DNA of 64,000 bases from Candidatus Marinacidobacterium sp. GTDB taxonomy: Bacteria > Acidobacteriota > Vicinamibacteria > Marinacidobacterales > Marinacidobacteraceae. This document shows positions 1 to 64,000 of the stretch, in pieces. A model generated the notes under the pieces. That model was not told where the DNA came from. It saw nothing but the letters and a program-made list of their open reading frames with translations, and searched no databases. The number at the start of each line of letters is the position of its first letter. The first letter of the stretch is position 1. A program made the position numbers and the translations under genes. The stretch is taken from positions 1,952,001 to 2,016,000 of the forward strand of contig OZ242011.1 of NCBI GenBank assembly GCA_965204755.1, in the 5' to 3' direction.

Positions 1-519
1 GTTCCAGCCGTCGCGGGCGTTCAGCAGGCGGTAGTTCGTTCCGTCCTTCGCGCCGGGGAAGAAGACGACCAGGCGGCCGCGGATGTCGGGCTCGACCCGG
101 CGGACCAGGTTGGAGACGCGGAGGAAGCCGTAGAGCGACCCCACCCCGGTGAGGGCGGTCACGCCGTTCTCGTCCGACTTCGCCAGCGCTCGGCCGAGCC
201 GCTCGGCGGCGTACTCCGGGAACTCCGCTTCCAGTTTGGGCGCGAGGAGTTCCGGCTGCTCGAACCACGCTTCGCGGTAGTCCTCGTCTTCGGCGGCGAG
301 CCAGTCGGCGAACCAGGAGGTGGAGTCGGTCTGCGTCCAGCCGTGCTCGGCGGCCTCGGTCACTCGCCGGAACTCGTCGATCCGCGCCCGGAGCATCCGC
401 TCGCGTTTCTCCGGGTACACCACGAAGACCACCCGCTGCGCCCCGGCGAGCGAGTGCGGCCACGGGGAGAGCACATGGCGCTGGTATCTGTCGACGAGTT
501 CCTCCACCTGGTTCTTCAT
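1..519 (-). CDS. brxB: BREX protein BrxB (DUF1788 family), 3' end off window
   Basis: ATG at 519 overlaps the upstream TGA (ATGA). Reads MKNQVEELVDRYQRHVLSPW...RGRLVVFFPGAKDGTNYRLLNARDGWN, a C-terminal motif typical of DUF1788. Not in the supplied ORF track (no stop in window). Confidence 0.8.
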   Translation of the reverse strand, partial: MKNQVEELVDRYQRHVLSPWPHSLAGAQRVVFVVYPEKRERMLRARIDEFRRVTEAAEHGWTQTDSTSWFADWLAAEDEDYREAWFEQPELLAPKLEAEFPEYAAERLGRALAKSDENGVTALTGVGSLYGFLRVSNLVRRVEPDIRGRLVVFFPGAKDGTNYRLLNARDGWN

Positions 520-1343
520 CGCGCCGCCTCCCGCGGGTCGAGCCGGTCCGCGCGGATTTCCAGCACGCCGCCGCTGCGGCGGATCTCGAGCAGGCCCAGC
601 CGGACGGCCTCGGTCGCGGCTTCGAGCAGTTGGTTCGGGTTCCGGTCCAGCACCCGCGCCCAGCGGCTCTCGAGCAGCGCGCGGCCGCCGTCGCCTTCCC
701 GTTCGCCCAGCCAGACCGCGAAGGCGAGCGCGCCCGGGGTCGGCGCCACCCGTCGGCGGATCTTCCGGACGCGCCCTTCGAGGTGGCCGGACTGCGACCA
801 GGAACTGGCGGCGTTGCGGGCCACCTTGTCGAGCACCGCGTCGTTGAAGCGGTCGCCGGTTCCGGCGCGGATCGCTTCGAGGAAGGGGCCGCGGACCAGT
901 TCCGCCCCGACCGGCAGCGGGAGGACGGCGGGGGCGGTGGCGCGGAGCACCGGGTCGCGGGCGAGCGCGGCGAGCAGGGCCAGCAGGGGGCGGCCCGGTT
1001 CGTCCGTGTTCCACAGCCGCCGGAGGACGCGGAAGATCGGGAAGCGCGGGTCGCAGCCGTACATCTCCCGGAGGTGCTGGCGGGAGTGGCGGCGGGACGC
1101 GGCGGTGGGCTTGCCGAGGGCGTTCTCGGCGAGCACCGCTTCGGTGTAGGCCGCCGCCGGCGCGTCCTCCGGGATGGCGCCGAGCAGTTCCCCGAGTTCC
1201 GCGAGCATGATCGTCCGGCTGCTGTGCGAGCCCCGGTCGCCGAACCGGAACCCGGCCCGCTCGGCGGCGGGTGCTCCCTCCGCGCGCTCGCCCCGGTGGG
1301 CGGGGGTCGTCCGGGCGGCGGGCGCGGCTGCGGGAGCGGGCAT
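516..1343 (-). CDS. BrxA-like BREX-associated protein
   Basis: GFRFGDRGSHSSRTIMLAEL...ENALGKPT...SSWSQSGHLEGRVRK family usually found directly upstream of DUF1788. Coupled to brxB. ATG 1343 preferred over TTG 1382. Confidence 0.65.
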   Translation of the reverse strand: MPAPAAAPAARTTPAHRGERAEGAPAAERAGFRFGDRGSHSSRTIMLAELGELLGAIPEDAPAAAYTEAVLAENALGKPTAASRRHSRQHLREMYGCDPRFPIFRVLRRLWNTDEPGRPLLALLAALARDPVLRATAPAVLPLPVGAELVRGPFLEAIRAGTGDRFNDAVLDKVARNAASSWSQSGHLEGRVRKIRRRVAPTPGALAFAVWLGEREGDGGRALLESRWARVLDRNPNQLLEAATEAVRLGLLEIRRSGGVLEIRADRLDPREAAR

Positions 1344-1353
1344 CGAGCCGGGG

Positions 1354-5880: not shown

Positions 5881-7302
5881 ATGCACACCCTTCCCACTCC
5901 CGGCCTCCTGCTGGCCCTGCCGCTGGCCGGTTCCGCCTGTTCCGGCCCGCAGGACGCCGATGCCCCGGCGCCGAACCGCCTCCTCGTGGACGGCGGGACG
6001 GTGATCGTGATGGACGAAGCCGGCACGGTCCTCCCCGGCGGCGCCGTGCTGGTGGAAGGGGACCGGATCGCGGGCCTCTTCGACCGCGCCGCCCCGCGTC
6101 CGCCCGGCGTGGAGGTGGTGGACGCCGAAGGGCAACTGGTGATTCCCGGCCTGGTGAACACCCACGGGCACGCGGCGATGTCGCTGCTCCGGGGGCTCGC
6201 CGACGACCTCCCGCTGATGACCTGGCTGGAAGAGCACATCTTCCCGGCGGAGGCGGAACTGGTCGCCCCGGACTTCGTGTACTGGGGGACGCTGCTCTCG
6301 TCCATCGAGATGCTGAAGAGCGGCACCACCACCTTCGCGGACATGTACTTCTTCCGCGAGGATGTGGTCCGCGCGATCACCGAAGCCGGGATCCGGGCGG
6401 TGGCCGGGCCGAGCATCATCGGCTTCCCCGCGCCGGACTTCCCGACTCCGGGGGACTCGCTGGCCGGCGCGGACGCCTTCTTCGAGAAGTACCGCGACCA
6501 CCCGCTGCTCGTCCCCGGAACTTCCTCCCACGCGCTCTACACCACCAGCCTCGAAGACACGCGGGCCGCGCTCGAAGCGGCGAACCGCCGCGGCGCGCCG
6601 TTCCAGATCCACGCCGCCGAGGGCAAGGACGAGGACGACCGCGTCCGCGAAGTCACCGGGATGGGCGTCATCGAGGCGCTGGACTCCATCGGCGCCCTCC
6701 GCCCGGGGACGGTGCTCGCCCACGGCATCTACCTCTCCGAGGAGGACATCCGCCGGATCGCCGCCGGCGGGGCGGGAGTGGCGCACAACCCGGAGAGCAA
6801 CATGAAACTCGGCGCGGACCGGGCCGCGCCGGTCACCGAGTTGCTGGCCGCCGGGGTTCCCGTCGGGCTCGGCACCGACGGCCCGGCGAGCAACAACGAC
6901 CTCGACCTGTTCGGCGAGATGGACACCGCCGCGAAACTCCACAAGTTCGCCGCCGGCGACCCGGCGCTCCTGCCGGCGGAGACGGTGTTCCGCATGGCCA
7001 CGATGGGCGGCGCCCGGGTGTTGGGCCTCGCCGACCGCATCGGTTCCCTCGAAGTCGGCAAACGCGCCGACCTGGTTCTGGTCGAAACCCGCCGCGCCGG
7101 CCTCACCCCGCTCTACCGCCCCTACTCGCACCTGGTCTATGCGGTCCGCGGCAGCGATGTCCGCACCGTCCTGGTCAACGGCCGCATCGTGGTGCGCGAC
7201 GGCGAAATCCTCACCGTGGACGAGGCCGCGGTGATGGCGAAGGCCCGCGAGTTCCGCGACCGCGCCGCCGAAGTCGTCGCCCGAGTCCGCGCCTCCCGCT
7301 GA
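5881..7302 (+). CDS. Amidohydrolase (MTA/SAH deaminase-like), probable lipoprotein or secreted
   Basis: PGLVNTHGH, SGTTTFADMYF, HNPESNMKL, GLGTDGPASNN, GSLEVGKRAD. Confidence 0.85.
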   Translation: MHTLPTPGLLLALPLAGSACSGPQDADAPAPNRLLVDGGTVIVMDEAGTVLPGGAVLVEGDRIAGLFDRAAPRPPGVEVVDAEGQLVIPGLVNTHGHAAMSLLRGLADDLPLMTWLEEHIFPAEAELVAPDFVYWGTLLSSIEMLKSGTTTFADMYFFREDVVRAITEAGIRAVAGPSIIGFPAPDFPTPGDSLAGADAFFEKYRDHPLLVPGTSSHALYTTSLEDTRAALEAANRRGAPFQIHAAEGKDEDDRVREVTGMGVIEALDSIGALRPGTVLAHGIYLSEEDIRRIAAGGAGVAHNPESNMKLGADRAAPVTELLAAGVPVGLGTDGPASNNDLDLFGEMDTAAKLHKFAAGDPALLPAETVFRMATMGGARVLGLADRIGSLEVGKRADLVLVETRRAGLTPLYRPYSHLVYAVRGSDVRTVLVNGRIVVRDGEILTVDEAAVMAKAREFRDRAAEVVARVRASR

Positions 7303-9000: not shown

Positions 9001-11244
9001 ATGCCGCGTTCGAAGCCGCTTTTGCCGTTCGTCCTGCTCGTCGGGCTCGCCGCCGCCCCGTTCGCCGTCCCGGTCGGGGCCGAGGAGAGCGAGTCCGGCA
9101 CCCGGATCGGCCGGGCCGCGTCCACGCTGGAGGCGCCGGTGATAGACGGACGGATGGACGACGAGGTCTGGCAGGGGGCGGAGCCGCTCACCGGGTTCGT
9201 GCAGGCCAACCCCTTCGAGGGGCAGCCGGCCACCGAGCGCACCGAAGTGCGCATCCTCTTCGACGACGACGCGCTCTACATCGGCGCGACGCTCTACGAC
9301 AGCGACCCCGGCGCGATCATCGCCACGGACGCGCGGCGGGACTCCGGCCTCGACGACACGGACTCCTTCCGGGTGATCCTGGACACCTACCACGACCTCC
9401 AGAACGGCTTCGTCTTCGGCACCACCCCGGCCGGGCTGGAATACGACGGCCAGGTCAGCAACGCCGGCGGGGGCGGCGGCGGAGGCGGCGGCCCGCAGAT
9501 GCGCGCCCGCACCGGCTCCGGCGGCGGCTTCAACCTGAACTGGGACGCGAGTTGGACCGTGGCCACCTCGGTGGGCGACTACGGCTGGTCGGCGGAGTTC
9601 GCCATTCCCCTGCGCACGCTCCGCTACGGGACCAGTCCGCAGACCTGGGGAATCAACTTCCAGCGGAACATCCGGCGGAAACGCGAAGAGGACTTCTGGT
9701 CGCCGGTCGCCCGCGTCTACAACCTCTACCGGCTTTCCTCCGCCGGCGAACTCCACGGGCTGGAACTCCCCGCGCCGCGCAACCTCAAGATCATTCCCTA
9801 CGGCCTCGGCGCCGGCGGCCGGGACTACACGGTCGAGGCGGAAACGCAGTCGAACTTCGACTTCGGCGTGGACGCGAAGGTCGGCGTGACGCCGAGTCTC
9901 AACCTCGACCTCACCTACAACACGGACTTCGCCCAGGTCGAGGTGGACGACCAGCAGATCAACCTCACCCGGTTCAACCTCTTCTTCCCGGAGAAGCGGC
10001 CGTTCTTCCTGGAGAACGCCGGCAACTTCTCCATGGGCCGCGGCAGTTCGGTGGACCTGTTCTTCAGCCGGCGCATCGGCATCGGGCCGAACGGCGTGCC
10101 GGTGCCGATCCTCGGCGGCGCGCGCCTCTCCGGCAAGGCCGGCGACTACAACCTGGGCCTGCTGAACATGCAGACGCAGGAAGTGCCCGATGTGGTGGCC
10201 GCCAACAACTTCACGGTGATGAGCCTGAGCCGCGAGTTCGGGGAGCGTTCCTCGCTCGGCGCCATGTTCGTGAACCGGATGGGCACCGGCGCCGCCGCGC
10301 TCGAGGACGACTGGAACCGCACCTTCGGCGTGGACGGACAGTTGGGCATCGGCGAGCACCTCACCTTCACCGGTTTCGCCGCCCGCACCGTCACTCCGGG
10401 CTACGAGGATCTCGACGGCGGCGAGTACGCCTACAGCGCGCGCGGCGAGTTCTTCCGCAACGACATCCGGCTCTGGCTGGGGATGACCGAGGTTTCGCCG
10501 AACTTCAACCCGGAGGTCGGCTTCCTGCGGAGGAAGGCCTACCGCAACCTGGACTACGGCTGGTTCGGCTACTACCGGCCGAAGTGGCTCCCGGTCTTCC
10601 GCGAACTGCGCCCCCACATCACCTACACCGGCTTCCGCACGCTGGACGGTTTCCTCGAGACCAGCCGCCTCCATGTGGACAGCCACCTCGACTTCGAGAA
10701 CGGCTACTACCTGAGCCCGGCGTTCAACCGCATCACCGAGGGCCTGCTGGAGCCGTTCGAGATCCGCGAAGGGATCGTCGTTCCCCCGGGCACCTACGAG
10801 CACTGGCAACTCGGCTGGCGGTGGAACACCGACCGCTCCGACCCGGTTTCGTATTCCGGCGGCCTCGACTACGGCGGGTTCCTCTCCGGCGAGCAGCGCA
10901 CGCTGGACACCACGCTCAACTACCGCTGGGGCACGCGGCTCATCACTTCCGCATCCTGGCTCTACAACGACATCGCGTTGCCCGAAGGCTCCTTCGTGGC
11001 GAACCTCGGCCAGTTCCGTGCTTCGTTCAACTTCACGCCGGTGATCTACCTGCAGGCGCTCCTCCAATACAACGACGACGCGGACATCTGGTCGTCCAAT
11101 GTGCGTTTCAGTTGGCTGAACACCGCCGGCACCGGCCTGTTCGTGGTCTATAACGACACCGAAGGCCTCGGGAATGTGTTGATCGGGCCGCAGAACCGCA
11201 GCCTCACCGTCAAGTACACCCACCAGTTCGACATCGTGAGGTAG
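9001..11244 (+). CDS. CBM9-like / DUF5916 outer-membrane protein
   Basis: Signal peptide, IDGRMDDEVW, WSAEFAIP, NTDFAQVEVD, FFPEKRPFFLE, LFFSRRIG. Confidence 0.8.
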   Translation: MPRSKPLLPFVLLVGLAAAPFAVPVGAEESESGTRIGRAASTLEAPVIDGRMDDEVWQGAEPLTGFVQANPFEGQPATERTEVRILFDDDALYIGATLYDSDPGAIIATDARRDSGLDDTDSFRVILDTYHDLQNGFVFGTTPAGLEYDGQVSNAGGGGGGGGGPQMRARTGSGGGFNLNWDASWTVATSVGDYGWSAEFAIPLRTLRYGTSPQTWGINFQRNIRRKREEDFWSPVARVYNLYRLSSAGELHGLELPAPRNLKIIPYGLGAGGRDYTVEAETQSNFDFGVDAKVGVTPSLNLDLTYNTDFAQVEVDDQQINLTRFNLFFPEKRPFFLENAGNFSMGRGSSVDLFFSRRIGIGPNGVPVPILGGARLSGKAGDYNLGLLNMQTQEVPDVVAANNFTVMSLSREFGERSSLGAMFVNRMGTGAAALEDDWNRTFGVDGQLGIGEHLTFTGFAARTVTPGYEDLDGGEYAYSARGEFFRNDIRLWLGMTEVSPNFNPEVGFLRRKAYRNLDYGWFGYYRPKWLPVFRELRPHITYTGFRTLDGFLETSRLHVDSHLDFENGYYLSPAFNRITEGLLEPFEIREGIVVPPGTYEHWQLGWRWNTDRSDPVSYSGGLDYGGFLSGEQRTLDTTLNYRWGTRLITSASWLYNDIALPEGSFVANLGQFRASFNFTPVIYLQALLQYNDDADIWSSNVRFSWLNTAGTGLFVVYNDTEGLGNVLIGPQNRSLTVKYTHQFDIVR

Positions 11245-40281: not shown

Positions 40282-40287
40282 GTCGGA

Positions 40288-40336: not shown

Positions 40337-40365
40337 GCTCCGGTCATGACGGGCGGAGGCTGCCG

Positions 40366-43968: not shown

Positions 43969-43982
43969 AGGAGGCTGACCCC

Positions 43983-45562: not shown

Positions 45563-45761
45563 TGCGGCGCCCCGGCTTCGTCCCGCTACGATTCCGCTGT
45601 CTTCGCGATTCCGTTCTCGGAACCGGTCGAGAAGGCCGGGAGGGACTGATGGTGGGTCTGACACCGGGGCGAACCGTGCGCGGGGCGCTCCTTGCTTCGC
45701 GTCGTTGCGGCGGCGCGCGTTCGGCGTTCGGCGGCCCGCCGACTCGGGCGGAGGATCCCCG

Positions 45762-50317: not shown

Positions 50318-50775
50318 GACGACACATCGCCTCGGTGTTTCTCGACGCCGGACTCCTGGTTCTGCTGATCGTAGGCGCCGTCGGCAAGGATCGCATCGCG
50401 CGCCATCGCCGGACGAAGCGGTTCACGGTGAACGACTTCGACTTCCTGGTAGAACTGTTGGAAGGGGTGAAGATCTTCGTTACGCCCCACACGCTCACGG
50501 AAGCATCGAACCTGCTCGCTCAACATGGAGAGCCTGACCGATCCCGTTTCCTGGGCGTGCTTCGCTCGCTGGTCGAAGACAGCGAGGAGAGAACTGTTCC
50601 GGCGCGGATCGCGACCGGCACGACCGAATTTCTCCGACTGGGACTTACGGATGCGGTACTGCTTGAAGTCGTGTCGAAGAAGACGCCCGTGCTTACGAGC
50701 GATCAAGACCTCTACCGCACCGCGTTGGCTCGCACCGACGAGTCGGCGCTGAATTTCTATCATCTCCAAGCGTAG
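50314..50775 (+). CDS. PIN domain protein
   Basis: FLDAGLL, TPHTLTEASN, LGLTDA, LTSDQDL. Confidence 0.8.
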   Translation: MRRHIASVFLDAGLLVLLIVGAVGKDRIARHRRTKRFTVNDFDFLVELLEGVKIFVTPHTLTEASNLLAQHGEPDRSRFLGVLRSLVEDSEERTVPARIATGTTEFLRLGLTDAVLLEVVSKKTPVLTSDQDLYRTALARTDESALNFYHLQA

Positions 50776-50927
50776 GCTGACCGCCATGCCGCAGATCGGG
50801 CCGGGGCATTCAGGCCCGACGCGGAGCCCGTCTGTCCTTTCGGGCGGCATGTGGAAGCGGTGAGCACGAGGATGCGGCGTCGTCGGGCGCGAACTTCGAT
50901 CCGCCTCGAGATCGGGGGGAAGACATC

Positions 50928-54176: not shown

Positions 54177-55438
54177 TCCGCCGCCTCCAAGTCCTGAACT
54201 ACCGGGGGCTCCGTTACCTGGACCTCCGGTTGGCCCCGTTCCAGATCCTCGTCGGCCGGAACGCGAGCGGGAAGAGCGCGGCGCTGGACGCCATCGCGTT
54301 CCTCCGCGACCTGGTCGCCTCCGGGCTCGAGGCGGCCGTCGAGAAGCGGACGCGCAACTTCCGGGACCTGGTGTGGGGCCGCCCGACCGGGGAGTCGGGC
54401 TTCGAACTCGCCGTGGAGTGCGGCCTCGCGGCGCGCGACCCCGAAGCGCCGTCGGACCCCGGAGACGACCGGGTATTCCGCTACGAAGTCGCCATCCGCG
54501 AAGTGGACGGAGCGCCCCGGATCACCGCGGAGCGCGGCCTGCTCGGGCCGCTCGGCGCGTCCGGCTTCGGGAGGCGGCGCGCCCGGTTCCCCGACCCGCC
54601 GCCCGCTCCGGGAACGATCTTCGTGGACGCCGCGAACGGGGACTACCGGCAGGTGCTCGCGCGGACCGACGCCGGCGCCTGGCGCTATGAACCGGAGACC
54701 GCGCCGGCGGTGGCCGAGCCCTGGGAGTCGCCCTACACCTTCGGCGCCGGTCGCCCGGCGCTCGCCCACCTCCCGGACGCCCCGGACGACTTCCCGGCGG
54801 CGTTTCGAGTCCGCCGGCTGCTCGCGGAAGTCCGCCGCCTGTTCGCGGCCCCCGCCGCCCTTCGCCGGCCCAGCCCGTATTCGTGGGACGCGAAGTCGCT
54901 GTCCCCCGACGGCGGCAACCTTCCCTGGGTCGTCCGGCGCCTCCGCTCCGAAGACGAAGAGGCGTTCGCGCACTGGTTGGAGCATGTGCGCTCCGCCCTC
55001 CCCGAGGTCGAAGACGTGCGGGTCGTCGTGCGGGAAGAGGACCGCCACGCGTACCTGATGGTTCGGAACAACGCCGGCCACGAGGTTCCGTCGTGGTCGG
55101 TCTCCGACGGCGCGCTCCGGCTGATGGCGCAAACGCTCCCGCTCTACGCGCGCTCCCCGGAGACGATCTGCCTGATCGAAGAGCCGGAAGCCGGGGTGCA
55201 CCCGGCGGTGATGCAGGAGGTGCTCGACGCGCTGCAGCCGGCCGGCGACCGCCAGGTGCTCGCGGCTACGCAGTCCGCGGCGCTTCTCGCGGAGGCCGAC
55301 CCGAAGACGATTCTCTACTTCTCCAAAACCGCGAACGACGCGGCCGATGTCTGCCCGGCGCTCGGGCATCCGAAGTTGAAGACCTGGGACGGCGACCCCG
55401 ACTTCGCCATGTTCTTCGCGTCCGGGATCCTGGACTGA
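54173..55438 (+). CDS. ABC-type (AAA_21) ATPase, MAD3-like, copy 1
   Basis: GRNASGKS, VSDGALR, LIEEPEAGVHP. H-loop reads ATQS. Confidence 0.8.
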   Translation: MIRRLQVLNYRGLRYLDLRLAPFQILVGRNASGKSAALDAIAFLRDLVASGLEAAVEKRTRNFRDLVWGRPTGESGFELAVECGLAARDPEAPSDPGDDRVFRYEVAIREVDGAPRITAERGLLGPLGASGFGRRRARFPDPPPAPGTIFVDAANGDYRQVLARTDAGAWRYEPETAPAVAEPWESPYTFGAGRPALAHLPDAPDDFPAAFRVRRLLAEVRRLFAAPAALRRPSPYSWDAKSLSPDGGNLPWVVRRLRSEDEEAFAHWLEHVRSALPEVEDVRVVVREEDRHAYLMVRNNAGHEVPSWSVSDGALRLMAQTLPLYARSPETICLIEEPEAGVHPAVMQEVLDALQPAGDRQVLAATQSAALLAEADPKTILYFSKTANDAADVCPALGHPKLKTWDGDPDFAMFFASGILD

Positions 55439-56091
55439 TGGCGAGAGGGAGCGTCCGGAAACTCCTGGTCGTCGTGCCCGATCGGCATCTTCGCGCTTCG
55501 CTCGAAACGCTGATCGGCCAGCGCTGGAAGGACCTCGGGATGCGCCCGGAGCCTTTCGAAGTGCGACGACACCCGGATTCCGATCCGGGCTGTCGGATGG
55601 CGACCGTTGCGTTCCTGCGGACCCTCGAACACGACTACGAGCGGGTACTCGTCGTTTTCGACCACGACGGCTGCGGCAGCGGCGATTCCCCGGAGGAAAT
55701 CGAACGGCGGGTCGAGGCCGATCTGGCCGCAAACGGTTGGCGCGGAAGGTCGAGGGTGATCGTCATCGCTCCCGAACTGGAGGCTTGGGTGTGGGGGCGC
55801 TCGGAAGGCGCCCTCCGGGCTCTCGGTTGGAAGGCCGGCTTCCCGGCGCTCCGGAACTGGCTCGCCGGACAAGGCCGGTGGCCGCCGGCGGAGCCCAAGC
55901 CGCCCGACCCGAAGGAAGCAGTGGCGTTGGCGCTGCGCCTGCGCCATCGGGTTCCGGATGCCCGATTCTTCAGGAGTTTGGCTGCCGCCGCGGACTTCGC
56001 CGACTGCCGCGACCGCGCGTTCCGTGAACTCCGCGCCACCCTGTGCGCTTGGTATCCGCCGGTCCCGCGGCCGAAGAGGTATGGATCGTGA
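55438..56091 (+). CDS. TOPRIM-like partner (MAD4/DUF4276-like), copy 1
   Basis: HPDSDPGC, VVFDHDGCG, PELEAWVW, KPPDPKEA, CRDRAF. Confidence 0.7.
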   Translation: MARGSVRKLLVVVPDRHLRASLETLIGQRWKDLGMRPEPFEVRRHPDSDPGCRMATVAFLRTLEHDYERVLVVFDHDGCGSGDSPEEIERRVEADLAANGWRGRSRVIVIAPELEAWVWGRSEGALRALGWKAGFPALRNWLAGQGRWPPAEPKPPDPKEAVALALRLRHRVPDARFFRSLAAAADFADCRDRAFRELRATLCAWYPPVPRPKRYGS

Positions 56092-56206
56092 TGACACGGC
56101 CGGTGGCCGGGAGGGGACGCTCCGTTCTCGCACGGCGCCGACCCCGCGCCGCTCCCCCCGCGCGGGGGGAAGATTCCCGACCGGTCACCGTTCCGGGGCC
56201 CGTATC

Positions 56207-57472
56207 GTGATCCGCCGCCTCCAAGTCCTGAACTATCGGGGCATCCGCTACCTGGATCTTCGGTTGGCCCCGTTCCAGGTCCTCGTCGGTCGGAATGCGA
56301 GCGGGAAGAGCACGGTGCTGGACGCGATCGCGTTCCTGCGCGACTTGGTTGCCTCCGGGCTCGACCTGGCGGTCGAGAGGCGGACGCGCAACTTCCAGGA
56401 CCTGGTGTGGGGCCGGCCGACCGAGGACCTCGGCTTCGAACTCGCCGTGGAGTGCGGTCTCGCGGGATTCGCTCCGGAAGCGCCGCCGGCCCCCGAAGAC
56501 GACCGGGTGTTCCGCTACGAGGTCGCCGTCCGCGAAGAGGAGCGGGCGCCGCGGATTACGGCGGAGCGCGGGTTGCTCGGGCGCTTGGGAGCGCCCGGCT
56601 TCGGGAAGCGGCGCGCGCGGTTTCCGGACCCGCCGCCCGCGCCGGAGACGATTTTCGTGGATGCGCGGACCGGGGAGTACCGGCAGGTGCTCTCGCGGAC
56701 CGACGCCGGCGCGCTCCGCTTCGAGCCGGAGACGGCGCAGTTGGTGAGTGAACCGCGGGAGTCCCCGTATTCCTTCGGCCCGGGACGGCCGGCTCTCGCC
56801 CACCTCCCGGACGCGCCGGACGACTTCCCGGCGGCGCTTCGAGTCCGCCGGCTGCTGACGGAGGTCCGCAGCCTGTTCGTGGATTGCGCGGCCCTTCGCC
56901 GACCCAGCCCGTATTCCCGGGACACGAAGTCGCTCTCCTCCGACGGCGGCAACCTTCCCTGGGTCGTTCGGCGTCTTTGCTCCGAGGACGAAGAGCGGTT
57001 CGAGCACTGGCTGGAGAACTTGCGCTTCTCGCTGCCCGAGGTCGAAGGGGTGCGGGTCGTCGTGCGGGAAGAGGATCGGTGCGCCTACCTGATGGTTCGC
57101 TACGCGGCCGGCCACGAAGTTCCCTCGTGGTCGGTATCCGACGGCACGCTCCGCCTGATGGCGCAGACGCTGCCGCTCCATGCGCGCGCCCCGGAGACGA
57201 TCCACCTGATCGAGGAACCGGAAGCCGGCGTGCATCCGGAGGTGATGCAGGATGTGCTCGATGCGCTGCAGCCGGCGGGCGACCGCCAGGTGCTCGCGGT
57301 TACGCAGTCCCCGGCGATCCTGGCGGATGCCGACGCGAAGACGGTCCTCTGCCTGGCCAAGGACGAGCGCGGCCTGCTCGATGCGATTCCGGCGCTTTCG
57401 CATCCGCGCATGGATGGTTGGATCGGCGCCCCGCACCTGGGCAACCTCTTCGCCGGAGGACTGCTCGGATGA
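56207..57472 (+). CDS. ABC-type ATPase, MAD3-like, copy 2 (no partner gene follows)
   Basis: Close paralog of 54173, same length (421 aa). GRNASGKST, VTQSP. Confidence 0.8.
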   Translation: MIRRLQVLNYRGIRYLDLRLAPFQVLVGRNASGKSTVLDAIAFLRDLVASGLDLAVERRTRNFQDLVWGRPTEDLGFELAVECGLAGFAPEAPPAPEDDRVFRYEVAVREEERAPRITAERGLLGRLGAPGFGKRRARFPDPPPAPETIFVDARTGEYRQVLSRTDAGALRFEPETAQLVSEPRESPYSFGPGRPALAHLPDAPDDFPAALRVRRLLTEVRSLFVDCAALRRPSPYSRDTKSLSSDGGNLPWVVRRLCSEDEERFEHWLENLRFSLPEVEGVRVVVREEDRCAYLMVRYAAGHEVPSWSVSDGTLRLMAQTLPLHARAPETIHLIEEPEAGVHPEVMQDVLDALQPAGDRQVLAVTQSPAILADADAKTVLCLAKDERGLLDAIPALSHPRMDGWIGAPHLGNLFAGGLLG

Positions 57473-57581
57473 GAGATTCCGGGTCCTTGCCGCCATCTGG
57501 TGCGGAGGGGAGATCCGGCGTCGTGTGCGCCGCGTATCTCCTCGCCGGGACTCGCCTGGGTCCGCCTGCCGCAGTCGCCTC

Positions 57582-58083
57582 ATGATCCGCCGTCTCCAAG
57601 CCCGGAACTACCGCTGCCTCCGGTATGTGGATCTCCGCTTGGACCGCTTCCAGGTCCTTGTCGGCCCGAACGCCAGCGGCAAGAGCACCGTGCTCGATGC
57701 GGTGGGTTTCTTGGGCGATCTGGTCGCTTCCGGGGTCGAGGCGGCGGTGGAACGGCGCTCGCCGGACTTCCGGGACCTCGTTTGGGCCCGCCCGGAAAGA
57801 GGTGACGGCATCGGCTTCGAACTCGCCGTGGAGTGCGGCCTCTCGGCGCGCGACCCGGAAACGCCGTCGGCCCCCGGAGACGACCGGGTATTCCGCTACG
57901 AGGCCGCCCGATCCCAGGAAGGCAGCCGAACGCGTGCTGGAACGAAACCACCGGCCGATCACGGCTCGCTTCTATCGAGAGTTGGCGAAGACGGCGGACT
58001 TCCGGGACTGCACGGATCCCGCGTTCTGCGCCCTGCGCGACACTCTCCGGGACTGGTATCCCGCGGCGCCGGAACCGCCCTGA
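57582..58083 (+). pseudogene. Deleted ATPase/TOPRIM pair (copy 3)
   Basis: ATPase N-terminus (MIRRLQARNYR...VFRYE) joined out of frame at ~57903 to a TOPRIM C-terminus (PPDPRKAAE...CTDPAFCALRDTLRDWYP*). Confidence 0.8.
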
Positions 58084-58426
58084 GTCTCGGTGCGGAGCTC
58101 TTCGGTGAGCGAACGGGGGATCGGACTCGCGGTGAGGTGTGATCTCACCGAGCAGGACCGCGAGGCGCTCTCGAAACTAAGGACGATCCGGTGCGCGGTG
58201 GAACGGCAACCACGCTCCCGAGCGCTGCCGAGACGCCGGCCATCGGCAGCGACCGGTGCGCACCGAGCGCATCCCTCGGCCGGCATCGGACTCCGCCGGC
58301 CGATATAGACTTCCGTCGCGGTGCTGGCAGTCACCGATATCGGTGCGCCGCCGTCGAGACTTCGCGCCGTTCCCGGCGATGCCGGGGTCGTAGCCATTCC
58401 GAGCGAGACACTCCCGCACTCAGACG

Positions 58427-59908
58427 ATGACACCCGACGCCGCCTGCCGCGTCTCCGTCCGCGACTTCGGCCCCGTCTCCTCCGCCGCGTTCGACCTGCG
58501 TCCGCTCACCGTCCTGGTAGGGCCCAGCAATACCGGCAAGTCGTATCTCGCTACCTTGGTGTATGCGTTCCTCCAGTGCTTCGGCCCCGCCGGTCGGAAT
58601 CGATCCGCCGTCGCGTTCGATCTACGCGACGACTTCGATGCCATGCCCGACGGAATACCGTCGTCCGCGATCTCCGAATTCTCCCAGTGGGTCATTCGGG
58701 TCCAGGAGACGCGCGCCCCGTCGCCGCTGCCGGCGAGCATATCCGCTCGTCTTCATGCCTTCGTGAAGAACGGCAAAGGACTTCCCGAAGAGTTCACCCG
58801 CCGGTTGCCGCGCTACTACGGAAAACACGATCTGCGCCGCCACCGCGCGAACCACGCGACACTCGAAGTCGAGTGTGTCACTCCGGACAACAATTCAATC
58901 GGTTACCGGTTCGATTTGCTCCGGGACGATCCGAAAGTCACCGGCCGGATCAGCGACGCTCTCCTGAGTCCGCCCACCGTGGTCGACGAACTGGCGCGGC
59001 GGGCCTACGCGCACGCCAACCTGCCTTCTCCCGCCGACGAATCGGACGGCCGGAAGCACCTCAGATGGCTGACTCTGCGCATTTTCGAGGACGCGGTCGC
59101 CCCGCTGCGGCGACCGGTCTATTACCTTCCCGCCAGTCGCACCGGACTTCTGCATAGCCACCTGGGTGTCGTGACCAGCCTCATCGAGAACGCCGCCGAT
59201 CCCACGGCCCTGCCTTCAACCGAACCGAACTTGTTGTCGGTCGTTTCGGCAGACTTCCTGAACAGGATGCTCCGGGCGCGCTCCTTCGATGGAGGTGTGC
59301 GGCCGCCAGAGTTGTTGGACTCGGCCGAGCGCCTGGAGACGGAACTTCTCGGCGGTCGCGTGGATGTCGGACGCGATGAAATCGGCGCTTCGCGTTTCAC
59401 CTATCGACCGACTACCTGGAAGAAGGCCATGCCCTTGGCCTCGGCCTCCTCCATGGTCTCCGAACTCGCGCCCGTCGTGATTTTCCAGCGATACATCCTT
59501 CGACCCGGTGATCTGATCGTTATCGAAGAGCCCGAGGCCCACTTGCACCCGGCGACCCAGGCGGCCTTCGTCCGGTGCCTCGCCCGAGTCGTCCGCGCCG
59601 GCGTTCGCGTGCTGCTCACCACGCACTCGGAGTGGGTGATGGAGGCCGTCGGGAACCTGGTGAGCGCCTCGCGGCTGCCCGAAGAGGCGAGAGGGAGGAT
59701 CGCCGGCAGCGACACGACACTGGCGCCGGAGGAAGTCGGCGTGTGGCTGTTTCGGGAAGCCGAGGGGTCCGGGGGCTCCACCGTGGAGGAGATCACGATC
59801 GATCCCGAAGTCGGTCTCTATCCCGCCGGGTACGACCGGACGGCAGACACCCTCTACAACAACAGCGTCCGCATCTCCAACGAGTTGCGGCGGCTCGCGG
59901 GATCGTGA
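58427..59908 (+). CDS. ABC-type (AAA_15/AAA_21) ATPase, unrelated lineage
   Basis: GPSNTGKS, LPASRTG, SSMVSELAP, IEEPEAHLHP, LTTHS. Lower GC. Confidence 0.82.
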   Translation: MTPDAACRVSVRDFGPVSSAAFDLRPLTVLVGPSNTGKSYLATLVYAFLQCFGPAGRNRSAVAFDLRDDFDAMPDGIPSSAISEFSQWVIRVQETRAPSPLPASISARLHAFVKNGKGLPEEFTRRLPRYYGKHDLRRHRANHATLEVECVTPDNNSIGYRFDLLRDDPKVTGRISDALLSPPTVVDELARRAYAHANLPSPADESDGRKHLRWLTLRIFEDAVAPLRRPVYYLPASRTGLLHSHLGVVTSLIENAADPTALPSTEPNLLSVVSADFLNRMLRARSFDGGVRPPELLDSAERLETELLGGRVDVGRDEIGASRFTYRPTTWKKAMPLASASSMVSELAPVVIFQRYILRPGDLIVIEEPEAHLHPATQAAFVRCLARVVRAGVRVLLTTHSEWVMEAVGNLVSASRLPEEARGRIAGSDTTLAPEEVGVWLFREAEGSGGSTVEEITIDPEVGLYPAGYDRTADTLYNNSVRISNELRRLAGS

Positions 59909-60099
59909 GCGGCCTCGTGGCCTCCGTGCGCGCCGCGGTGGCGCCGGAAGCGGTCGATAGCCGGATCGACCGGGACGGCTGCCGCAGCGACCTCCTGCGC
60001 CGCGCGATCCGCCTGCGCAACGAGATCCGCCAGCCGCTCCTGTTCCAGTGCGGCGACTCCCTGGAGCCGCTCTTCTCCGACCAGAACCCCGCGGCGTAG
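59905..60099 (+). pseudogene. Probable internally deleted partner of the 58427 ATPase
   Basis: GTG overlaps the ATPase stop. Only 64 codons. Confidence 0.35.
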
Positions 60100-60285
60100 A
60101 GCCGCTCGGGAGACCGGGTTTCTGGACGAAACGACTTGCCCCTCACGGCCCGCTCCCGTCGAGACTCGGCGCGAACGACAGACCGCCGGGATCGCCGGGA
60201 CGCAGAATTCCGCACACGCCGCGACCTGCTGAGTGGTATCCCCGCGCGCCGGCGCTAATCTGCGTTCGCCCGCCGCAGTCGCCTC

Positions 60286-61551
60286 ATGATCCGCCGTCTC
60301 CAAGCCCGGAACTACCGCTGCCTCCGGTATGTGGATCTTCGGTTGGACCGCTTCCAGGTCCTCGTCGGGCCGAACGCCAGCGGCAAGAGCACCGTGCTCG
60401 ATGCGGTGCGCTTCCTGGGCGATCTGGTTACTTCCGGGGTCGAGGCGGCGACGGAACGGCGCTCGCCGGACTTCCGGGACCTGGTGTGGGCCCGCCCGGA
60501 AGGCGGTGACGGCCTCGGCTTCGAACTCGCCGCCGAATTCGATCTCTCCGACGAAGACCCCGCCGCGCCCGAGGCGCCGCCCGATGACCGGGTGTTCCGC
60601 TACGAAGTCGCGGTCCGACAGGAAGACGGGGCGCCGCGCATCGCCCGGGAGCGCGGTCTCCTGGGTCGGCTCGGCGTCGGGGCTTTCCGACAGCGGCGTC
60701 AACGGTTCCCCGACCCGCAAGCCCCGCCGGAGACGATCTTCGTGAACGAAAACACTGCCGGCTACCGGCAGGTGTTGACGAAGTCCGGCGCGGGGCAGTC
60801 GCGCATCGAGCCGGAGTCGCGGGACCGGGTTGCGGAGGCGTGGGCGCCCGCCTGCGCCGTCGGCGGAGGCCGCTCCGCCCTCTCCGATCTACCGGGAGGG
60901 CCGGACGAGTTTCCCGCGGCGACTCGGAGCCGGCGGCTGCTGACCGAGACCCGACGACTCTTCCTCGACAGCGCCGCGCTTCGCCGACCTTCGCCTCCCG
61001 CGCCGCCGGGCGCCCTCTCCCCGGACGGATCCAACCTCGCTTGGCTCGTCCGGGAACTCCGGGCCGAGGACGAGCGGCGCTTCGCCGGATGGCTGCGGCA
61101 GGTGCGCTGCGCGCTGCCCGATGTCGTGGATGTTCGCGTGGTCGTCTCGGACGACGACCGCGCCCATCTGATGATCCGCTACGACACCGGTTTCGAGATT
61201 CCTTCGTGGGCGGTGTCCGAAGGAACGCTGCGCTTCCTGGCGCTGAGCCTCGTCCTTTTCCTTCCTGCGCCGGAGGTCATCTACCTGATCGAAGAACCGG
61301 AGGACGGCGTGTATCCACTGCTGATGCAGGATGTGGGAGAGGCGCTGTCGCCCGTGCATGGGCCGCAGGTTCTCGTGGCCACGCATTCTCCGGCGATGCT
61401 CACGGAAATGGAACCCAAGAACCTTCTATGTCTCGCGAAGGACGCGAACGGCGCGCCCGATGTCATCCCGGCAACCGCGCACCCCGATCTCGGTGACTGG
61501 GACGGGGTTCCCCGTGTCAGCGCACTGTTCGCTGCGGGAGCCCTGGAGTGA
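60286..61551 (+). CDS. ABC-type ATPase, MAD3-like, copy 4
   Basis: 421 aa. GPNASGKST, VSEGTLR, IEEPEDGVYP, ATHSP. Confidence 0.82.
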   Translation: MIRRLQARNYRCLRYVDLRLDRFQVLVGPNASGKSTVLDAVRFLGDLVTSGVEAATERRSPDFRDLVWARPEGGDGLGFELAAEFDLSDEDPAAPEAPPDDRVFRYEVAVRQEDGAPRIARERGLLGRLGVGAFRQRRQRFPDPQAPPETIFVNENTAGYRQVLTKSGAGQSRIEPESRDRVAEAWAPACAVGGGRSALSDLPGGPDEFPAATRSRRLLTETRRLFLDSAALRRPSPPAPPGALSPDGSNLAWLVRELRAEDERRFAGWLRQVRCALPDVVDVRVVVSDDDRAHLMIRYDTGFEIPSWAVSEGTLRFLALSLVLFLPAPEVIYLIEEPEDGVYPLLMQDVGEALSPVHGPQVLVATHSPAMLTEMEPKNLLCLAKDANGAPDVIPATAHPDLGDWDGVPRVSALFAAGALE

Positions 61552-62189
61552 CGGGTACCGACACGCGTCCGCGCCTCTTGGTGTTGACGGCCGATCGGCA
61601 CTCGACCGTGTCCGTCCGCACGCTCCTCGACACCCGGCGGAGGGCCTTGGGCATTCGACGCCTGGAGTTCCGGATACTCCGGCATCCCGAGTCCGACCCG
61701 GGTTGCCGGAAGCACGCCGTGGAGGAAGTGCGGCCTTACCTCCGCCGATTCGATCGGCTCGTCGTCGTGTTCGATCATGCCGGCTGCGGCAGCGCCGACC
61801 CGCCGGAACAAATCGAACGAACTCTGGAAGACGTCCTTGCCCGGAACGGCTGGAGGGATCGCGTGAAGGTCATCGTGGTCGCGCCCGAACTCGAAGCGTG
61901 GATCTGGGGGAGATCGGAGGCCGTGGCGCGAGTGCTCGGTTGGGAGGGCGGATTCGCCGCGCTCAGGACTTGGCTCGCCGAGCAGGGCCTTTGGCCTCCG
62001 GGAGACCCCAAGCCTCCCGACCCGAAACGAGCCGCCGAGCGGGTTCTCGGCCGGCGCGGAACGAGACTTACGGCCGACTTGTTCCGGGAATTGGCGTCAC
62101 GGGCGAGTTTCCGCGACTGCCGGGACCCCGCGTTCTGCGCGCTGCGCGACACTCTGCGGGAGTGGTATCCCGCGGGAGACGAACCATGA
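61548..62189 (+). CDS. TOPRIM-like partner (MAD4/DUF4276-like) of ATPase copy 4
   Basis: HPESDPGC, VVFDHAGCG, PELEAWIW, KPPDPK, CRDPAF. Confidence 0.72.
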   Translation: MTGTDTRPRLLVLTADRHSTVSVRTLLDTRRRALGIRRLEFRILRHPESDPGCRKHAVEEVRPYLRRFDRLVVVFDHAGCGSADPPEQIERTLEDVLARNGWRDRVKVIVVAPELEAWIWGRSEAVARVLGWEGGFAALRTWLAEQGLWPPGDPKPPDPKRAAERVLGRRGTRLTADLFRELASRASFRDCRDPAFCALRDTLREWYPAGDEP

Positions 62190-64000
62190 CCAAGAAGAAC
62201 CGGCCGACGCCGTGGCGCGAACTGGTGCATCTCAAGGAGGAACTGCGCTCCGGGGAACTCGCGCTGGCGGAATTCGCGGCCGACCTCCACGATGTGGTGA
62301 CCGCTTCGGGAAAGCGCCGCCTCTACGAGGACCCGGCGGAATTCTTCGCGCTCACCTACCTCACCCACCCGCTGCGGGAACTCGCGAAGGATGTCGCGCT
62401 CCGGCTCGCCGGGAAGAGCGACAAGGCGGTCCGGCAGTTGGAGTTGACCTACGGCGGCGGGAAGACCCACACGCTGATCACGCTCTACCACCTCTTCGGC
62501 TCCCCCCGCGAACTCCCCGACCTGCCGGCGGTGCGGGAATTCCGCGAGCACCTCGGCGAAACCCCGCCGCGCGCGTTCGCCGCCGCACTCTGCTTCGACA
62601 AGATCGACGCCGAGAAGGGGATCGACGGCGCGCGCGCCCCCGACGGCGCCGAGCGCTCGCTGAAGCACCCGTGGAGCGTCCTCGCCTACCAACTCGCCGG
62701 CGACGACGGACTGCGGGCGATCCACGCCGACGGCAAGCCCGAAGAACGCGAAACCCCGCCGGCGGAACCGCTGCTGGCGAAACTCCTGGAATCTCCGCGC
62801 GAACGCGGTATCCCTTCGACGCTGGTGCTGGTGGACGAGGTCCTGATGTACGCCGGCGAGAAGGCCGAACTCGATCCGGTCTGGGAATCGCGGCTCACCA
62901 ACTTCTTCCAGCACCTCTCGCAGGCGGTCGGCCGGGTGGACACCGCGGCGCTCGTCGTCTCGCTGCTGTCGAGCGATCCCACGAAGGCGCAGGGAGACGC
63001 CGCCGAAGGAGTGATTCGCGCCATCTCCGGCATCCTCCGGAGGACGCGGGACGAAGGCGTGGAGCCGGTCGGGAAGGAGGATGTGCCGGAGATCCTGCGC
63101 CGCCGCTTCTTCCCGCCGGACGACTTCCGCGACCTCGACGCCCACCGTCCGCAGGCCATCGCGGTGGCGCGGAACCTCACCGCGCTCGAATCCGATACCA
63201 AGAAGACCCGTCAGGCCACCGAAACCCGCCTGCTCGACAACTTCCCCTTCCACCCCGACCTCACCGATGTCTTCTACGGCAGGTGGACGCAACTCTCCGG
63301 CTTCCAGCGCACGCGCGGCATCCTTCGCGTGCTCGCTTCCGCCATGCGGCAAGCGGAGGAATGGGACAACGCGCCGCTGATCGGCCCGTCCGCGTTCCTC
63401 TCCGCTCCGGGCGCCTCGGGCCTCTCCGAATCCGTGCGGGAACTCGCGGACATCGCGACCAAGGAACCGGGGGACCGCTCGTCCGACTGGGCCGCGCTCC
63501 TCGCCACCGAGTTGGAGAAGGCGCGGCAGGCGCAGGACGAAACTCCGGCGCTGCTCGAAGGGCGCGAAATCGAACAGGCGGTGCTCGCCGTCTTCTTCCA
63601 CTCGCAGCCCGCCGGCCGGAAGGCCGGGACGCCGGACCTGCTGCGCCTCATCGGGAGCGGCGGCGCGAACCGGATCGAGTTGGAGAAAGGACTCCGGCGG
63701 TGGCGGCAACTGTCGTGGTTCCTCGACGACGAGGACACCGGACTCGCCGCCGCTTCGGACGAGATTCCCCGGTCCTGGCGGCTCGGCAACCGCCCGAACC
63801 TGCGGCAGATGCACGACGAGGCGGTGCGGCGGATCAGCGGCGATTCCGTGCGGGCGCGGCTGCTCGAGGGAATCAAGAAGGCGAAGAAGGCGCTGACCGA
63901 GGGCGCGCAGGGTGCGGGCGCCGTCGTCCACCTGCTCCCGCCCGCGCCGAAGGATGTCGCCGACGACGGCAAGTTCCGGTTCGTGGTGCTCCCGCCGGAG
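62186..64000 (+). CDS. DUF499 AAA+ ATPase, 3' end off window
   Basis: ATGA overlap. PWRELVHLKEEL..EFAADLHDV..YEDPAEFFALTY..YGGGKTH..LVDEV..FPFHP..FQRTRGILR. Not in the ORF track (no stop in window). Confidence 0.88.
   Translation, partial: MTKKNRPTPWRELVHLKEELRSGELALAEFAADLHDVVTASGKRRLYEDPAEFFALTYLTHPLRELAKDVALRLAGKSDKAVRQLELTYGGGKTHTLITLYHLFGSPRELPDLPAVREFREHLGETPPRAFAAALCFDKIDAEKGIDGARAPDGAERSLKHPWSVLAYQLAGDDGLRAIHADGKPEERETPPAEPLLAKLLESPRERGIPSTLVLVDEVLMYAGEKAELDPVWESRLTNFFQHLSQAVGRVDTAALVVSLLSSDPTKAQGDAAEGVIRAISGILRRTRDEGVEPVGKEDVPEILRRRFFPPDDFRDLDAHRPQAIAVARNLTALESDTKKTRQATETRLLDNFPFHPDLTDVFYGRWTQLSGFQRTRGILRVLASAMRQAEEWDNAPLIGPSAFLSAPGASGLSESVRELADIATKEPGDRSSDWAALLATELEKARQAQDETPALLEGREIEQAVLAVFFHSQPAGRKAGTPDLLRLIGSGGANRIELEKGLRRWRQLSWFLDDEDTGLAAASDEIPRSWRLGNRPNLRQMHDEAVRRISGDSVRARLLEGIKKAKKALTEGAQGAGAVVHLLPPAPKDVADDGKFRFVVLPPE

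Follow-up and report, generated by a model that had tools for sequence, protein, structure and literature searches.

Near-absence of AGCT and ACGT from a Candidatus Marinacidobacterium genome: site avoidance and two candidate restriction-modification-like cassettes

The question raised by this locus is why two 4-bp palindromes, AGCT (the site of AluI) and ACGT (the site of MaeII and HpyCH4IV), are nearly missing from it. The locus is a stretch of 64,000 nucleotides from Candidatus Marinacidobacterium sp. (GenBank assembly GCA_965204755.1, contig OZ242011.1, positions 1,952,001 to 2,016,000 of the forward strand), referred to below as the window. The source genome, labelled G000, is a single contig of 3,975,858 bp, in which the window corresponds to G000:C1:1952001-2016000. 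In a preliminary description made from the letters of the window, two readings had been offered, long-standing C5 methylation without matching repair and strong restriction avoidance. The analysis given here retained the second and not the first. Restriction-site avoidance by selection, with two resident paralogous restriction-modification-like cassettes outside the window as the agents, is the explanation favoured (probability about 0.55).

Depletion of AGCT and ACGT in the window and the genome

The window has a GC content of 71.2% and contains one AGCT (58096) and four ACGT (11961, 24382, 55014 and 61831), against 120 and 114 expected from a second-order Markov model. Following dinucleotide-preserving shuffling of the window (n = 100), AGCT was counted 140 ± 12 times and ACGT 187 ± 13 times, and the observed counts lay below those of all 100 shuffles. 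AGCT had been described as absent and ACGT as present three times; the depletion is thus real and the absence not total, and the ACGT at 11961 had been overlooked beside the other three. The figure of about 150 sites of each word, put forward from base composition, falls within the 115-190 obtained by Markov model and shuffles. Other palindromes described as abundant were near Markov expectation in the window (observed/expected: GATC 372/391, TCGA 512/399, CCGG 1435/1287, GGCC 691/910), and the non-palindromic ACCT/AGGT was not depleted. The lower-GC genes of the island in the second part of the window were also purged, as had been stated: 1 AGCT of 46 expected and 2 ACGT of 57 were found in the defence-island part (38001-64000), and 0 of 73 and 2 of 57, respectively, in the housekeeping part (1-38000).

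The depletion holds genome-wide, under both Markov and codon models. AGCT was found 332 times against 7,446 expected by the Markov model (ratio 0.045) and ACGT 265 times against 7,147 (ratio 0.037). The next lowest palindrome of G000 was CTAG at 0.13, and the remaining ones were at 0.32 or higher. A CTAG deficit was found in every family member sampled; it is a common bacterial dip, unrelated to the genus-specific effect. Genes were called by a simple ORF caller using codon log-odds, a crude procedure; the resulting 2,760 genes make up 87.5% of the genome. Codon tables were drawn from the 2,488 genes scoring at least 40 (1.09 million codons), with the first ten codons of each dropped. Given the protein sequence and codon usage of these genes, 84 AGCT were observed of 7,967 expected and 122 ACGT of 6,524. 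In the genome-wide Markov table, AGTT/AACT and ATGT/ACAT were above expectation, with ratios of 1.5-1.7, and AGCA/TGCT showed an approximately twofold excess. The latter was taken to be partly an artefact of the depleted AGC/GCT trinucleotides; AGCA stood at 0.99 under the codon model and AGCA/TGCT at 1.73 in intergenic DNA.

The surviving sites were unevenly placed. Neither word occurred in 539 of the 795 five-kb windows of the genome, while 47 of them held 190 AGCT and 125 ACGT, and the number of sites per five-kb window decreased with GC content (Spearman -0.38). The 332 AGCT were distributed over uncalled DNA (96), confident genes (87), repeat arrays (70), low-scoring genes (30), tRNAs (27) and rRNA (22); the 265 ACGT over confident genes (122), uncalled DNA (110), low-scoring genes (22), rRNA (6) and tRNAs (5). 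The single rRNA operon (4.6 kb) accounted for 22 AGCT and 6 ACGT, and 23 of the 67 tRNAs contained AGCT. Sites thus persist at places held constant by function or in DNA that looks like a recent acquisition, as in low-GC islands. That a few hundred sites are tolerated fits methylation protection at a small cost per site, and the survival of AGCT in rRNA and tRNA genes is likewise compatible with protection by methylation.

Routes by which the sites were lost

If the sites had decayed by mutation, AG(m5C)T and A(m5C)GT would deaminate faster than they are repaired and give AGTT/AACT and ATGT/ACAT. Within genes, the C-to-T replacement signature on which this reading was based is present. Among the 2,488 genes, AGT|T (bars mark codon boundaries) was found 1,635 times against 329 expected, NAG|TTR 5,921 against 3,192, NAA|CTN 6,381 against 2,375 and NAT|GTN 4,997 against 656. 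The examples taken from the window were exact: GAG|TTG (Glu-Leu) at 6838..6843 (+), in an amidohydrolase gene (5881-7302), where it is a synonymous escape from GAG|CTG; AGT|TGG at 9550..9555 (+), with Ser AGT instead of AGC before T, and AGTTGG again at 11110; and GAT|GTG (Asp-Val) at 6361..6366 (+). Also on the side of decay, six C5 methyltransferases are encoded in the genome, and at 19 columns of four housekeeping genes that have AGCT in at least 30% of 21 non-depleted relatives, G000 has AGTT nine times and AACT eight times. The amino acids are identical at 17 of these 19 ancestral columns. The cost in codon usage is visible: NAT makes up 98.6-98.8% of the codons for Asn, Asp, His and Tyr before Val (GTN), against 3-7% before other G-initial codons, and GAA is used in 75% of Glu-Leu pairs, against 32% elsewhere.

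In these frames, which hold most sites, the genetic code leaves little room. Asn, Asp, His or Tyr before Val can escape synonymously only to NAT|GTN, and Glu, Gln or Lys before Leu only to NAA|CTN or NAG|TTG. For AGC|T the one synonymous exit is AGT|T, since no synonymous step leads from the AGY to the TCN codons of serine. The C-to-T signature is uninformative in those frames, because transitions are the sole synonymous exits from them.

Threonine codons before a T-initial codon leave a choice. For 5,130 such codons, the fractions were ACC.764, ACG.005, ACA.014 and ACT.217. As controls, the fourfold sets of Ala and Pro before T gave, in the order C/G/A/T of the third position,.549/.326/.019/.106 and.417/.485/.012/.085. 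The opposite-strand deamination product, ACA before T, was thus at baseline (1.4%; baseline 1.2-1.9%), and the missing ACG before T was replaced by ACC and ACT, i.e. by transversions. A four-state mutation-selection model of Thr codons before T was fitted to three baselines. With mutation only, the fit needed an extra ACG-to-ACA rate of 70-460 times the normal exit rate and predicted 12-19% ACA. Forbidding ACG|T predicted ACC at approximately.81-.91, ACT at.07-.17 and ACA at.024-.028, and the observed fractions fit this model. The scarcity of ACA|T was replicated in the three other depleted genomes, labelled G001, G005 and G007 and described below (1/112, 4/86 and 0/20, respectively; controls 8/417 and 7/232).

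Noncoding DNA gave the same picture. In 1,333 short intergenic gaps between confident genes (192 kb in total), the ratios to expectation were 0.10 for AGCT and 0.03 for ACGT; AGTT/AACT stood at 0.81 and ACAT/ATGT at 0.98, i.e. without product excess, and a mild excess was seen for AGCA/TGCT (1.73) and ACGA/TCGT (1.53).

A third comparison was provided by nine intergenic arrays of 340-520 bp, each of which has 9-14 same-strand copies of the AT-rich 12-mer GAATTGTGTATA. The copies have a period of approximately 20-31 bp and are grouped in two clusters 150-300 bp apart. Among the 100 exact copies overall, 69 continue to AGCT, and the others to AGGT (22), AGCC (6) and AGGC (3). None of these 31 decayed copies, which may not be independent events, has the C-to-T product. 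The arrays (L227-L235) are located at genome positions 357893, 756030, 1207929, 1659916, 2045498, 2895448, 2970773, 3119131 and 3494174. Their flanking genes are unrelated and mostly housekeeping, so that the arrays mark no single regulon, and the 12-mer was absent from 27 other family genomes, the sister species included. Another short repeat borders some of the arrays. A small mobile element is one possible identity, and a series of protein-binding sites is another; that the arrays are kept because the AGCT system uses them is speculation.

The search of the genome for C5 methyltransferases and vsr genes, which had been proposed from the window, returned six loci with PF00145 (C5 methyltransferase) and six Vsr-family matches. 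Of the six Vsr matches, which would be repair genes, five have no internal stop. Five are neighbours of five different C5 methyltransferases, directly adjacent or at most 6 kb away. Vsr-family genes stand beside both methyltransferases considered as candidates below. Very-short-patch repair is reported to affect oligonucleotide abundance, a relation ascribed to Bhagwat and McClelland in 1992. The window itself has no PF00145 match, in line with the preliminary description, and the nearest lies approximately 91 kb away.

Taken together, the transitions are prominent in genes, where most frames allow nothing else, and the C-to-T signature does not extend to Thr codons before T, intergenic gaps and repeats, where the choice is free. 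Depletion without product excess, which had been named beforehand as favouring plain avoidance, was found wherever the code permits choice, and this counts against deamination. So do the retention of sites in rRNA and tRNA genes and the 70-460-fold extra rate that would be needed, and methylation without matching repair agrees poorly with the six Vsr-family matches. The pattern resembles CpG-type m5C decay in that a methylated motif would be rare and its transition products common in genes; it differs in that the product excess vanishes where the code leaves choice, in the presence of Vsr-family genes and in the rate required. We conclude with considerable confidence that the sites were removed by selection and not by deamination; mutational decay as the cause is very improbable.

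Relatives sharing the depletion and the cassettes they carry

Relatives were found by TopA, whose gene lies in the window (29282..31585, + strand), and 4-mers were counted on syntenic samples of 11-20 kb around topA in 39 relatives. G001 gave two samples and G033 was left out. The family comprises 28 species genomes, of which G441-G443 were not counted for 4-mers. Both words were depleted in G001 only, the one other species of the genus, with a TopA 84% identical to that of G000 (observed/expected in the two samples: AGCT 1/39 and 3/32, ACGT 3/27 and 0/25). Two genomes from two other genera were depleted in ACGT only, G005 (ACGT 3/28, AGCT 55/67) and G007 (ACGT 6/28, AGCT 47/50). The other 21 sampled genomes of the family and 15 sampled genomes from two further families of the order were near expectation. 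Pooled sequence confirmed this division: G001 (100 kb) had AGCT 17/179 and ACGT 33/184, G005 (60 kb) 173/212 and 7/79, and G007 (19 kb) 52/53 and 7/32. In a four-protein concatenated tree (29 rows), the genus fell outside a clade with 98% support that contains G005, G007 and non-depleted genera; because of this separation, the ACGT trait needs at least two changes on the tree. Relative to the family, the depletion is thus young, and the loss of ACGT was acquired more than once. A TopA search of genome contigs yielded 80 loci, all at 51% identity or less, and no close relatives among them.

The comparison also bears on an artefact of assembly, in which base-calling errors at methylated motifs in a long-read consensus would erase the words. 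Methylated motifs can produce systematic long-read consensus errors, and G000, G001 and G005 are single-contig assemblies. However, AGCT is read normally in the rRNA operon, in 23 tRNAs and in 69 repeat copies; the replacements respect frame and amino acids (17 of the 19 columns) and include transversions (ACG to ACC or ACT); and the draft G007, in 410 contigs, is depleted in ACGT as well. The artefact is scarcely credible and was rejected, because base-calling errors would hit RNA genes and ignore frames, neither of which was seen.

Two cassettes follow the distribution of the two words. Cassette 1 (genome ~1,259,100-1,263,770, - strand) consists of genes for a 326-aa C5 methyltransferase (1,262,788-1,263,768), a 657-aa protein A, a 297-aa protein B and a DUF6339 protein C. 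The first three genes follow one another with overlapping stop and start codons (methyltransferase-A and A-B), and a Vsr-family gene is found approximately 2 kb past C, beyond an insertion sequence (IS). Adjacent genes of this one operon match all three models of the PADLOC system PDC-M33 (PADLOC-DB v2.0.0, PDLC04582-04587): PDC-M33A at 5e-93 (A), PDC-M33B at 2.5e-40 (B) and PDC-M33C at 1e-22 (C). PDC-M33 is a computational candidate system; we propose here that it is linked to a C5 methyltransferase, Vsr and a 4-bp word. The region beside cassette 1 (1,256,700-1,259,200; L135, 6500-9200) contains an IS with a DDE_Tnp_1 transposase. On either side of this IS is a stretch matching the sister species' single Vsr gene; one of the two is open and the other has an internal TGA, and a truncated D12-class adenine methyltransferase adjoins these stretches.

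Cassette 2 (genome ~1,516,100-1,521,460, + strand) consists of A' (at most 627 aa), a middle ORF, a 240-aa DUF6339-like ORF, a 444-aa C5 methyltransferase (1,519,737-1,521,071) and a Vsr-like gene, whose Vsr match is weaker than the others. A' is a distant homologue of A: hhalign gave a probability of 93.6% over 310 columns, and PADLOC matched PDC-M33A at 4e-6. The 240-aa ORF matched DUF6339 at 6e-4, which is weak and below cut-off, and the middle ORF matched neither a PDC-M33 model nor, by hhalign, the B alignment. Cassette 2 is thus no more than a distant paralogue of PDC-M33.

Neither A nor B matched Pfam or NCBIfam, and C matched only DUF6339. Homologues of A (203 at E <= 1e-10) and B (71 at E <= 1e-8) were recovered, none with a Pfam domain or an informative name, and the protein atlas returned only clusters named 'hypothetical protein'. 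In the alignment of A, E41, N45 and D48 are invariant within the consensus ETIQNSLDA, and a stretch GGSHGIGK is conserved; we take these to be the N-box and a second ATP-binding motif of GHKL proteins. The AlphaFold model of A (mean pLDDT 76.6) was matched by Foldseek to Hsp90, TRAP1 and Topo VI-B over approximately 450-530 columns (E ~1e-9), and on this model A is predicted to be a GHKL ATPase with a middle domain. The C-terminus of the model contains a disordered glycine-rich linker (464-559) and then a small beta domain. B was modelled as an Ig-like sandwich with a helical domain (mean pLDDT 86); comparison of this model with the PDB by Foldseek and VIA-align returned nothing beyond generic Ig-like sandwiches (best Z 8.1) and revealed no nuclease. 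Sequence searches of the PDB with A and B gave nothing meaningful. No named restriction-enzyme family was found for the cassette proteins in Pfam, NCBIfam or PADLOC, and comparison of the A alignment with a BbrUII/HgiDII-like protein by hhalign matched only the glycine-rich ATP-lid motif. The Vsr-like genes may supply the nuclease partner rather than, or besides, a repair enzyme.

Within the family, A' was found in 4 of the 28 genomes, G000, G005 (55% identity), G007 (53%) and G001 (26%, at the syntenic site), which are exactly the four ACGT-poor genomes; it was found in none of the 16 genomes of two other families. All five genes of cassette 2 are present in G005, at 50-80% identity and within other chromosomal surroundings. 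The cassette-2 methyltransferase shows 74% identity in G005 and 43% in G001, and other family hits are at 38% or lower. The stretch between the catalytic blocks of this enzyme (target recognition) has motifs common to G000, G005 and G001, which is compatible with one predicted specificity. Comparison of the G001 locus (L153) with that of G000 (L138) showed the same site, with left flanks 75-92% identical, and a diverged cassette 2 in which the ATPase is 26%, the methyltransferase 43% and the Vsr-like gene 66-77% identical; this looks like replacement at a hot spot.

For cassette 1, A is present in G000 and G001 (57% identity); the non-depleted G013 gave a weak match at 30%. The methyltransferase was found in 2 of the 28 family genomes, again G000 and G001 (73%). 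The cassette is syntenic between the two, and the carriers of both A and the methyltransferase are the two AGCT-poor genomes. A metagenome scan with the ATPase of cassette 1 returned only two distant loci (33% and 25% identity), neither of them depleted; for this reason AGCT is without an independent replicate.

Candidate agents, their rivals and what the depletion would mean

A restriction system is the likely agent of the avoidance, and the chance that the agents are these two cassettes is about even. As judged from the genomes that carry them, cassette 1 would read AGCT and cassette 2 ACGT, and both presumably restrict DNA. In the proposed mechanism, the methyltransferase of each cassette would mark the tetranucleotide and the ATPase-containing module would attack unmarked sites. 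With approximately 7,000 sites per word, lapses of methylation would be costly, and any mutation that abolishes a site but leaves the protein as it was would therefore be favoured. Sites would persist where they are functionally fixed (rRNA, tRNA, repeat array) or newly acquired (low-GC islands). Avoidance would have arisen in the lineage of the genus and, for ACGT, at least once more, in two other genera. More tentatively, and with odds below even, PDC-M33-type cassettes may be ATP-dependent restriction systems of a separate class, which reads 4-bp palindromes and is self-toxic enough for two paralogues (for AGCT and ACGT, respectively) to have swept more than 95% of approximately 14,000 sites within the lifetime of the genus.

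Several points weigh against the cassettes as agents. The resemblance of cassette 2 to PDC-M33 is weak by each of the three scores given above (A 4e-6, DUF6339 6e-4, hhalign 93.6%). Apart from the Vsr-like genes, no nuclease was recognised in either cassette, with both A and B folded. In G007, cassette 2 is represented by no more than a 1.5-kb contig, and this draft, which is 86% complete, yielded no C5 methyltransferase. The words were assigned by co-occurrence among genomes, and the match is post hoc, the depletion pattern having been seen before the cassettes were searched for. The genomes are moreover kin, so that AGCT counts as one evolutionary event and ACGT as two or three. Outside the family, the PDC-M33A profile matches 13 other genomes of the phylum (401 searched, G000 included), with strong matches in G298 (3.5e-102) and G389 (3e-78, gene split in two). 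None of these 13 carriers showed depletion of a 4-mer palindrome beyond the CTAG dip in samples of 10-40 kb, and 6 of 7 carriers, G298 and G389 among them, showed no clear depletion of 5- or 6-mers in samples of 20-40 kb, in which power for 6-mers is low. These carriers may either read longer sites or have acquired the system recently, or the family may generally not cause avoidance. The genus is also very rich in methyltransferases, and two rivals were compared across the family. Finally, an ATP-dependent multi-protein agent would be an unusual exception to the pattern in a published survey, in which avoidance was found for 47.9% of genome-site pairs of orthodox Type II systems and for practically none of other types (Rusinov et al. 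2015, PMC4687349).

These points lead to the alternative that a different restriction-modification system is responsible, perhaps a classical AluI-like or MaeII/HpyCH4IV-like Type II system at another locus or since lost, and that the cassettes co-occur by chance or ancestry. Methyltransferases are numerous enough for this: PF01555 matches number 25 in G000, 27 in G001, 18 in G007, 8 in G005 and 5 in G012, many of them in ORFs of 900-1,500 aa; PF02384 has 9 matches each in G000 and G001; and PF00145 has 6 in G000, 3 in G001 and 1 in G005. Several G005 methyltransferases have G000 homologues at 47-80% identity. The undepleted PDC-M33A carriers also speak for this alternative, as does the documentation of avoidance mainly for orthodox Type II systems and the persistence of traces of lost ones (PMC4687349). 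On the other hand, the choice is narrow if m5C protects, since the single C5 enzyme of G005 is that of cassette 2 and two of the three in G001 are in the cassettes. Two small N4/N6 methyltransferases common to G000 and G005 were the rivals compared across the family; they were found in 17 and 11 of the 28 genomes, non-depleted ones included, and were excluded as agents on account of this wide occurrence. The ATPase and methyltransferase of each cassette, by comparison, match the depleted genomes exactly. A different system is accordingly held doubtful, although it is the strongest competitor.

Besides the two cassettes, four C5 loci are present in G000. One has a Dcm-like enzyme with an EcoRII-like endonuclease and Vsr. 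Another has a methyltransferase with Vsr and a 291-aa protein without assigned family, and a third a methyltransferase with Vsr, adjoining a 995-aa N4/N6 methyltransferase and a GHKL protein. The fourth (L136; 2,393,071-2,396,051) lies beside a BbrUII/HgiDII-family enzyme (351 bits, cut-off 550) with a GHKL N-terminal domain, a GmrSD protein and an N4/N6 methyltransferase. Enzymes of the BbrUII/HgiDII family presumably cut GTCGAC, a word found 416 times genome-wide against 2,076 expected (0.20) and low in other genera of the family as well, but not in the rest of the order. This locus, together with the low GTCGAC count, is a useful internal control for avoidance. GTAGAC/GTCTAC (0.185) and CTATAG (9/66) are also low in G000. 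In another family of the phylum, 40 kb of G377 (L166, L167) had CAGCTG 0/16, CTCGAG 2/20, TCCGGA 2/20 and CCCGGG 5/27, with GGACC also low (51/108); G377 is thus another genome with heavy site avoidance, and no system could be attributed to it.

In the window, the lower-GC defence island (38855..64000) is poor in both words, and none of its genes was implicated as the cause of the depletion. It encodes an HTH-SNF2 helicase with NOV_C (40366-43968), two GmrSD_N proteins (43965-45107 and 46055-48202), a 1,077-aa DUF1156 methyltransferase (50943-54176), DUF5131, a HEPN protein, a Schlafen/AlbA_2 protein and four AAA_21/AAA_15 ATPases. The only AGCT of the window (58096..58099) lies in an uncalled stretch of the island, between two of these ATPase genes. 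Among the ACGT sites, that at 55014..55017 is within an AAA_21 gene of the island (54173-55438, +) and that at 61831..61834 at the 3' end of a 718-aa ORF (61775-63931, -); outside the island, 11961..11964 is in the NNA|CGT frame of a called gene (11302-12141, +) and 24382..24385 within a PD40-repeat gene (23385-26417, -). The source organism has outer-membrane proteins of Gram-negative type. As the island is as word-poor as the core despite its lower GC, it is therefore old, from kin or filtered on entry.

This last observation also fits avoidance imposed from outside the cell or by DNA function, i.e. by restriction enzymes of neighbours during DNA exchange, by phage nucleases or by a structural or regulatory taboo: both words are as scarce in the island as in the core, as would be expected of incoming DNA that came from kin or was filtered, and the dprA gene in the window suggests natural transformation. 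In pandoraviruses, too, the absence of AGCT has no accepted cause (bioRxiv 10.1101/712018). Against an outside cause, the effect is sharply limited to genomes with specific resident cassettes, and both words are palindromes of the Type II kind, with the non-palindromic ACCT/AGGT undepleted. To our knowledge, there is no structural reason that would act in one genus but not in its family. An outside cause is regarded as distinctly improbable.

Selection against restriction sites by the resident cassettes remains the preferred explanation, and the phenomenon itself is of a known kind. Avoidance of palindromes in prokaryotic genomes has reportedly been described by Gelfand and Koonin in 1997 and by Rocha and colleagues in 2001. 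As in the survey cited above, short palindromes fall below Markov expectation in host genomes that encode restriction-modification systems, and avoidance is attributed there to self-cleavage under incomplete methylation together with long residence (PMC4687349). Unlike in that survey, where the threshold for under-representation was 0.78, ratios of 0.04 were found for two 4-mers at once, and the candidates are GHKL-ATPase cassettes, a class without avoidance there, rather than orthodox Type II pairs (PMC4687349). What is unusual is the strength of the effect, its sharp limitation to one genus, its codon cost and the kind of agent that is proposed.

For a near-absence of AGCT, the closest published parallel is that of pandoraviruses, where its authors offered no explanation (Poirot et al. 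2019, bioRxiv 10.1101/712018). There, too, AGCT is specifically eliminated from GC-rich megabase genomes, the loss follows phylogeny and selection is argued for over compositional bias. Pandoraviruses are eukaryotic giant viruses for which no candidate enzyme is named; the present case is bacterial, has lost ACGT too and has co-occurring methyltransferase cassettes. A full-text search for avoidance or under-representation of AGCT and ACGT gave no comparable bacterial case within the literature collection searched, and a similar search gave no paper mentioning PDC-M33 or DUF6339.

With regard to the cassettes, GHKL ATPases beside cytosine methylases and Vsr-superfamily endonucleases have been predicted to be restriction components (Iyer, Abhiman and Aravind 2008, PMC2292703). 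As in the MORC/paraMORC operons of that work, a GHKL ATPase adjoins a cytosine methyltransferase and a Vsr-superfamily gene. As a difference, the cassette showed neither a helicase nor, apart from the Vsr-like gene, a recognisable nuclease domain; the passages of that work concerned with MORC/paraMORC systems do not tie a recognition site to them (PMC2292703).

If the cassettes are indeed the agents, a compositional footprint alone would assign recognition words to an uncharacterised and widespread defence family (203 ATPase homologues). The PDC-M33 family would then gain its first recognition sites, and this would contradict the rule that an avoidance footprint is left by orthodox Type II systems alone. 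The test on Thr codons before T separates selection on sites from deamination and is reusable, for instance on the absence of AGCT in pandoraviruses. The genome is also a clean natural experiment on the speed and the routes by which a bacterial genome rewrites approximately 14,000 sites.

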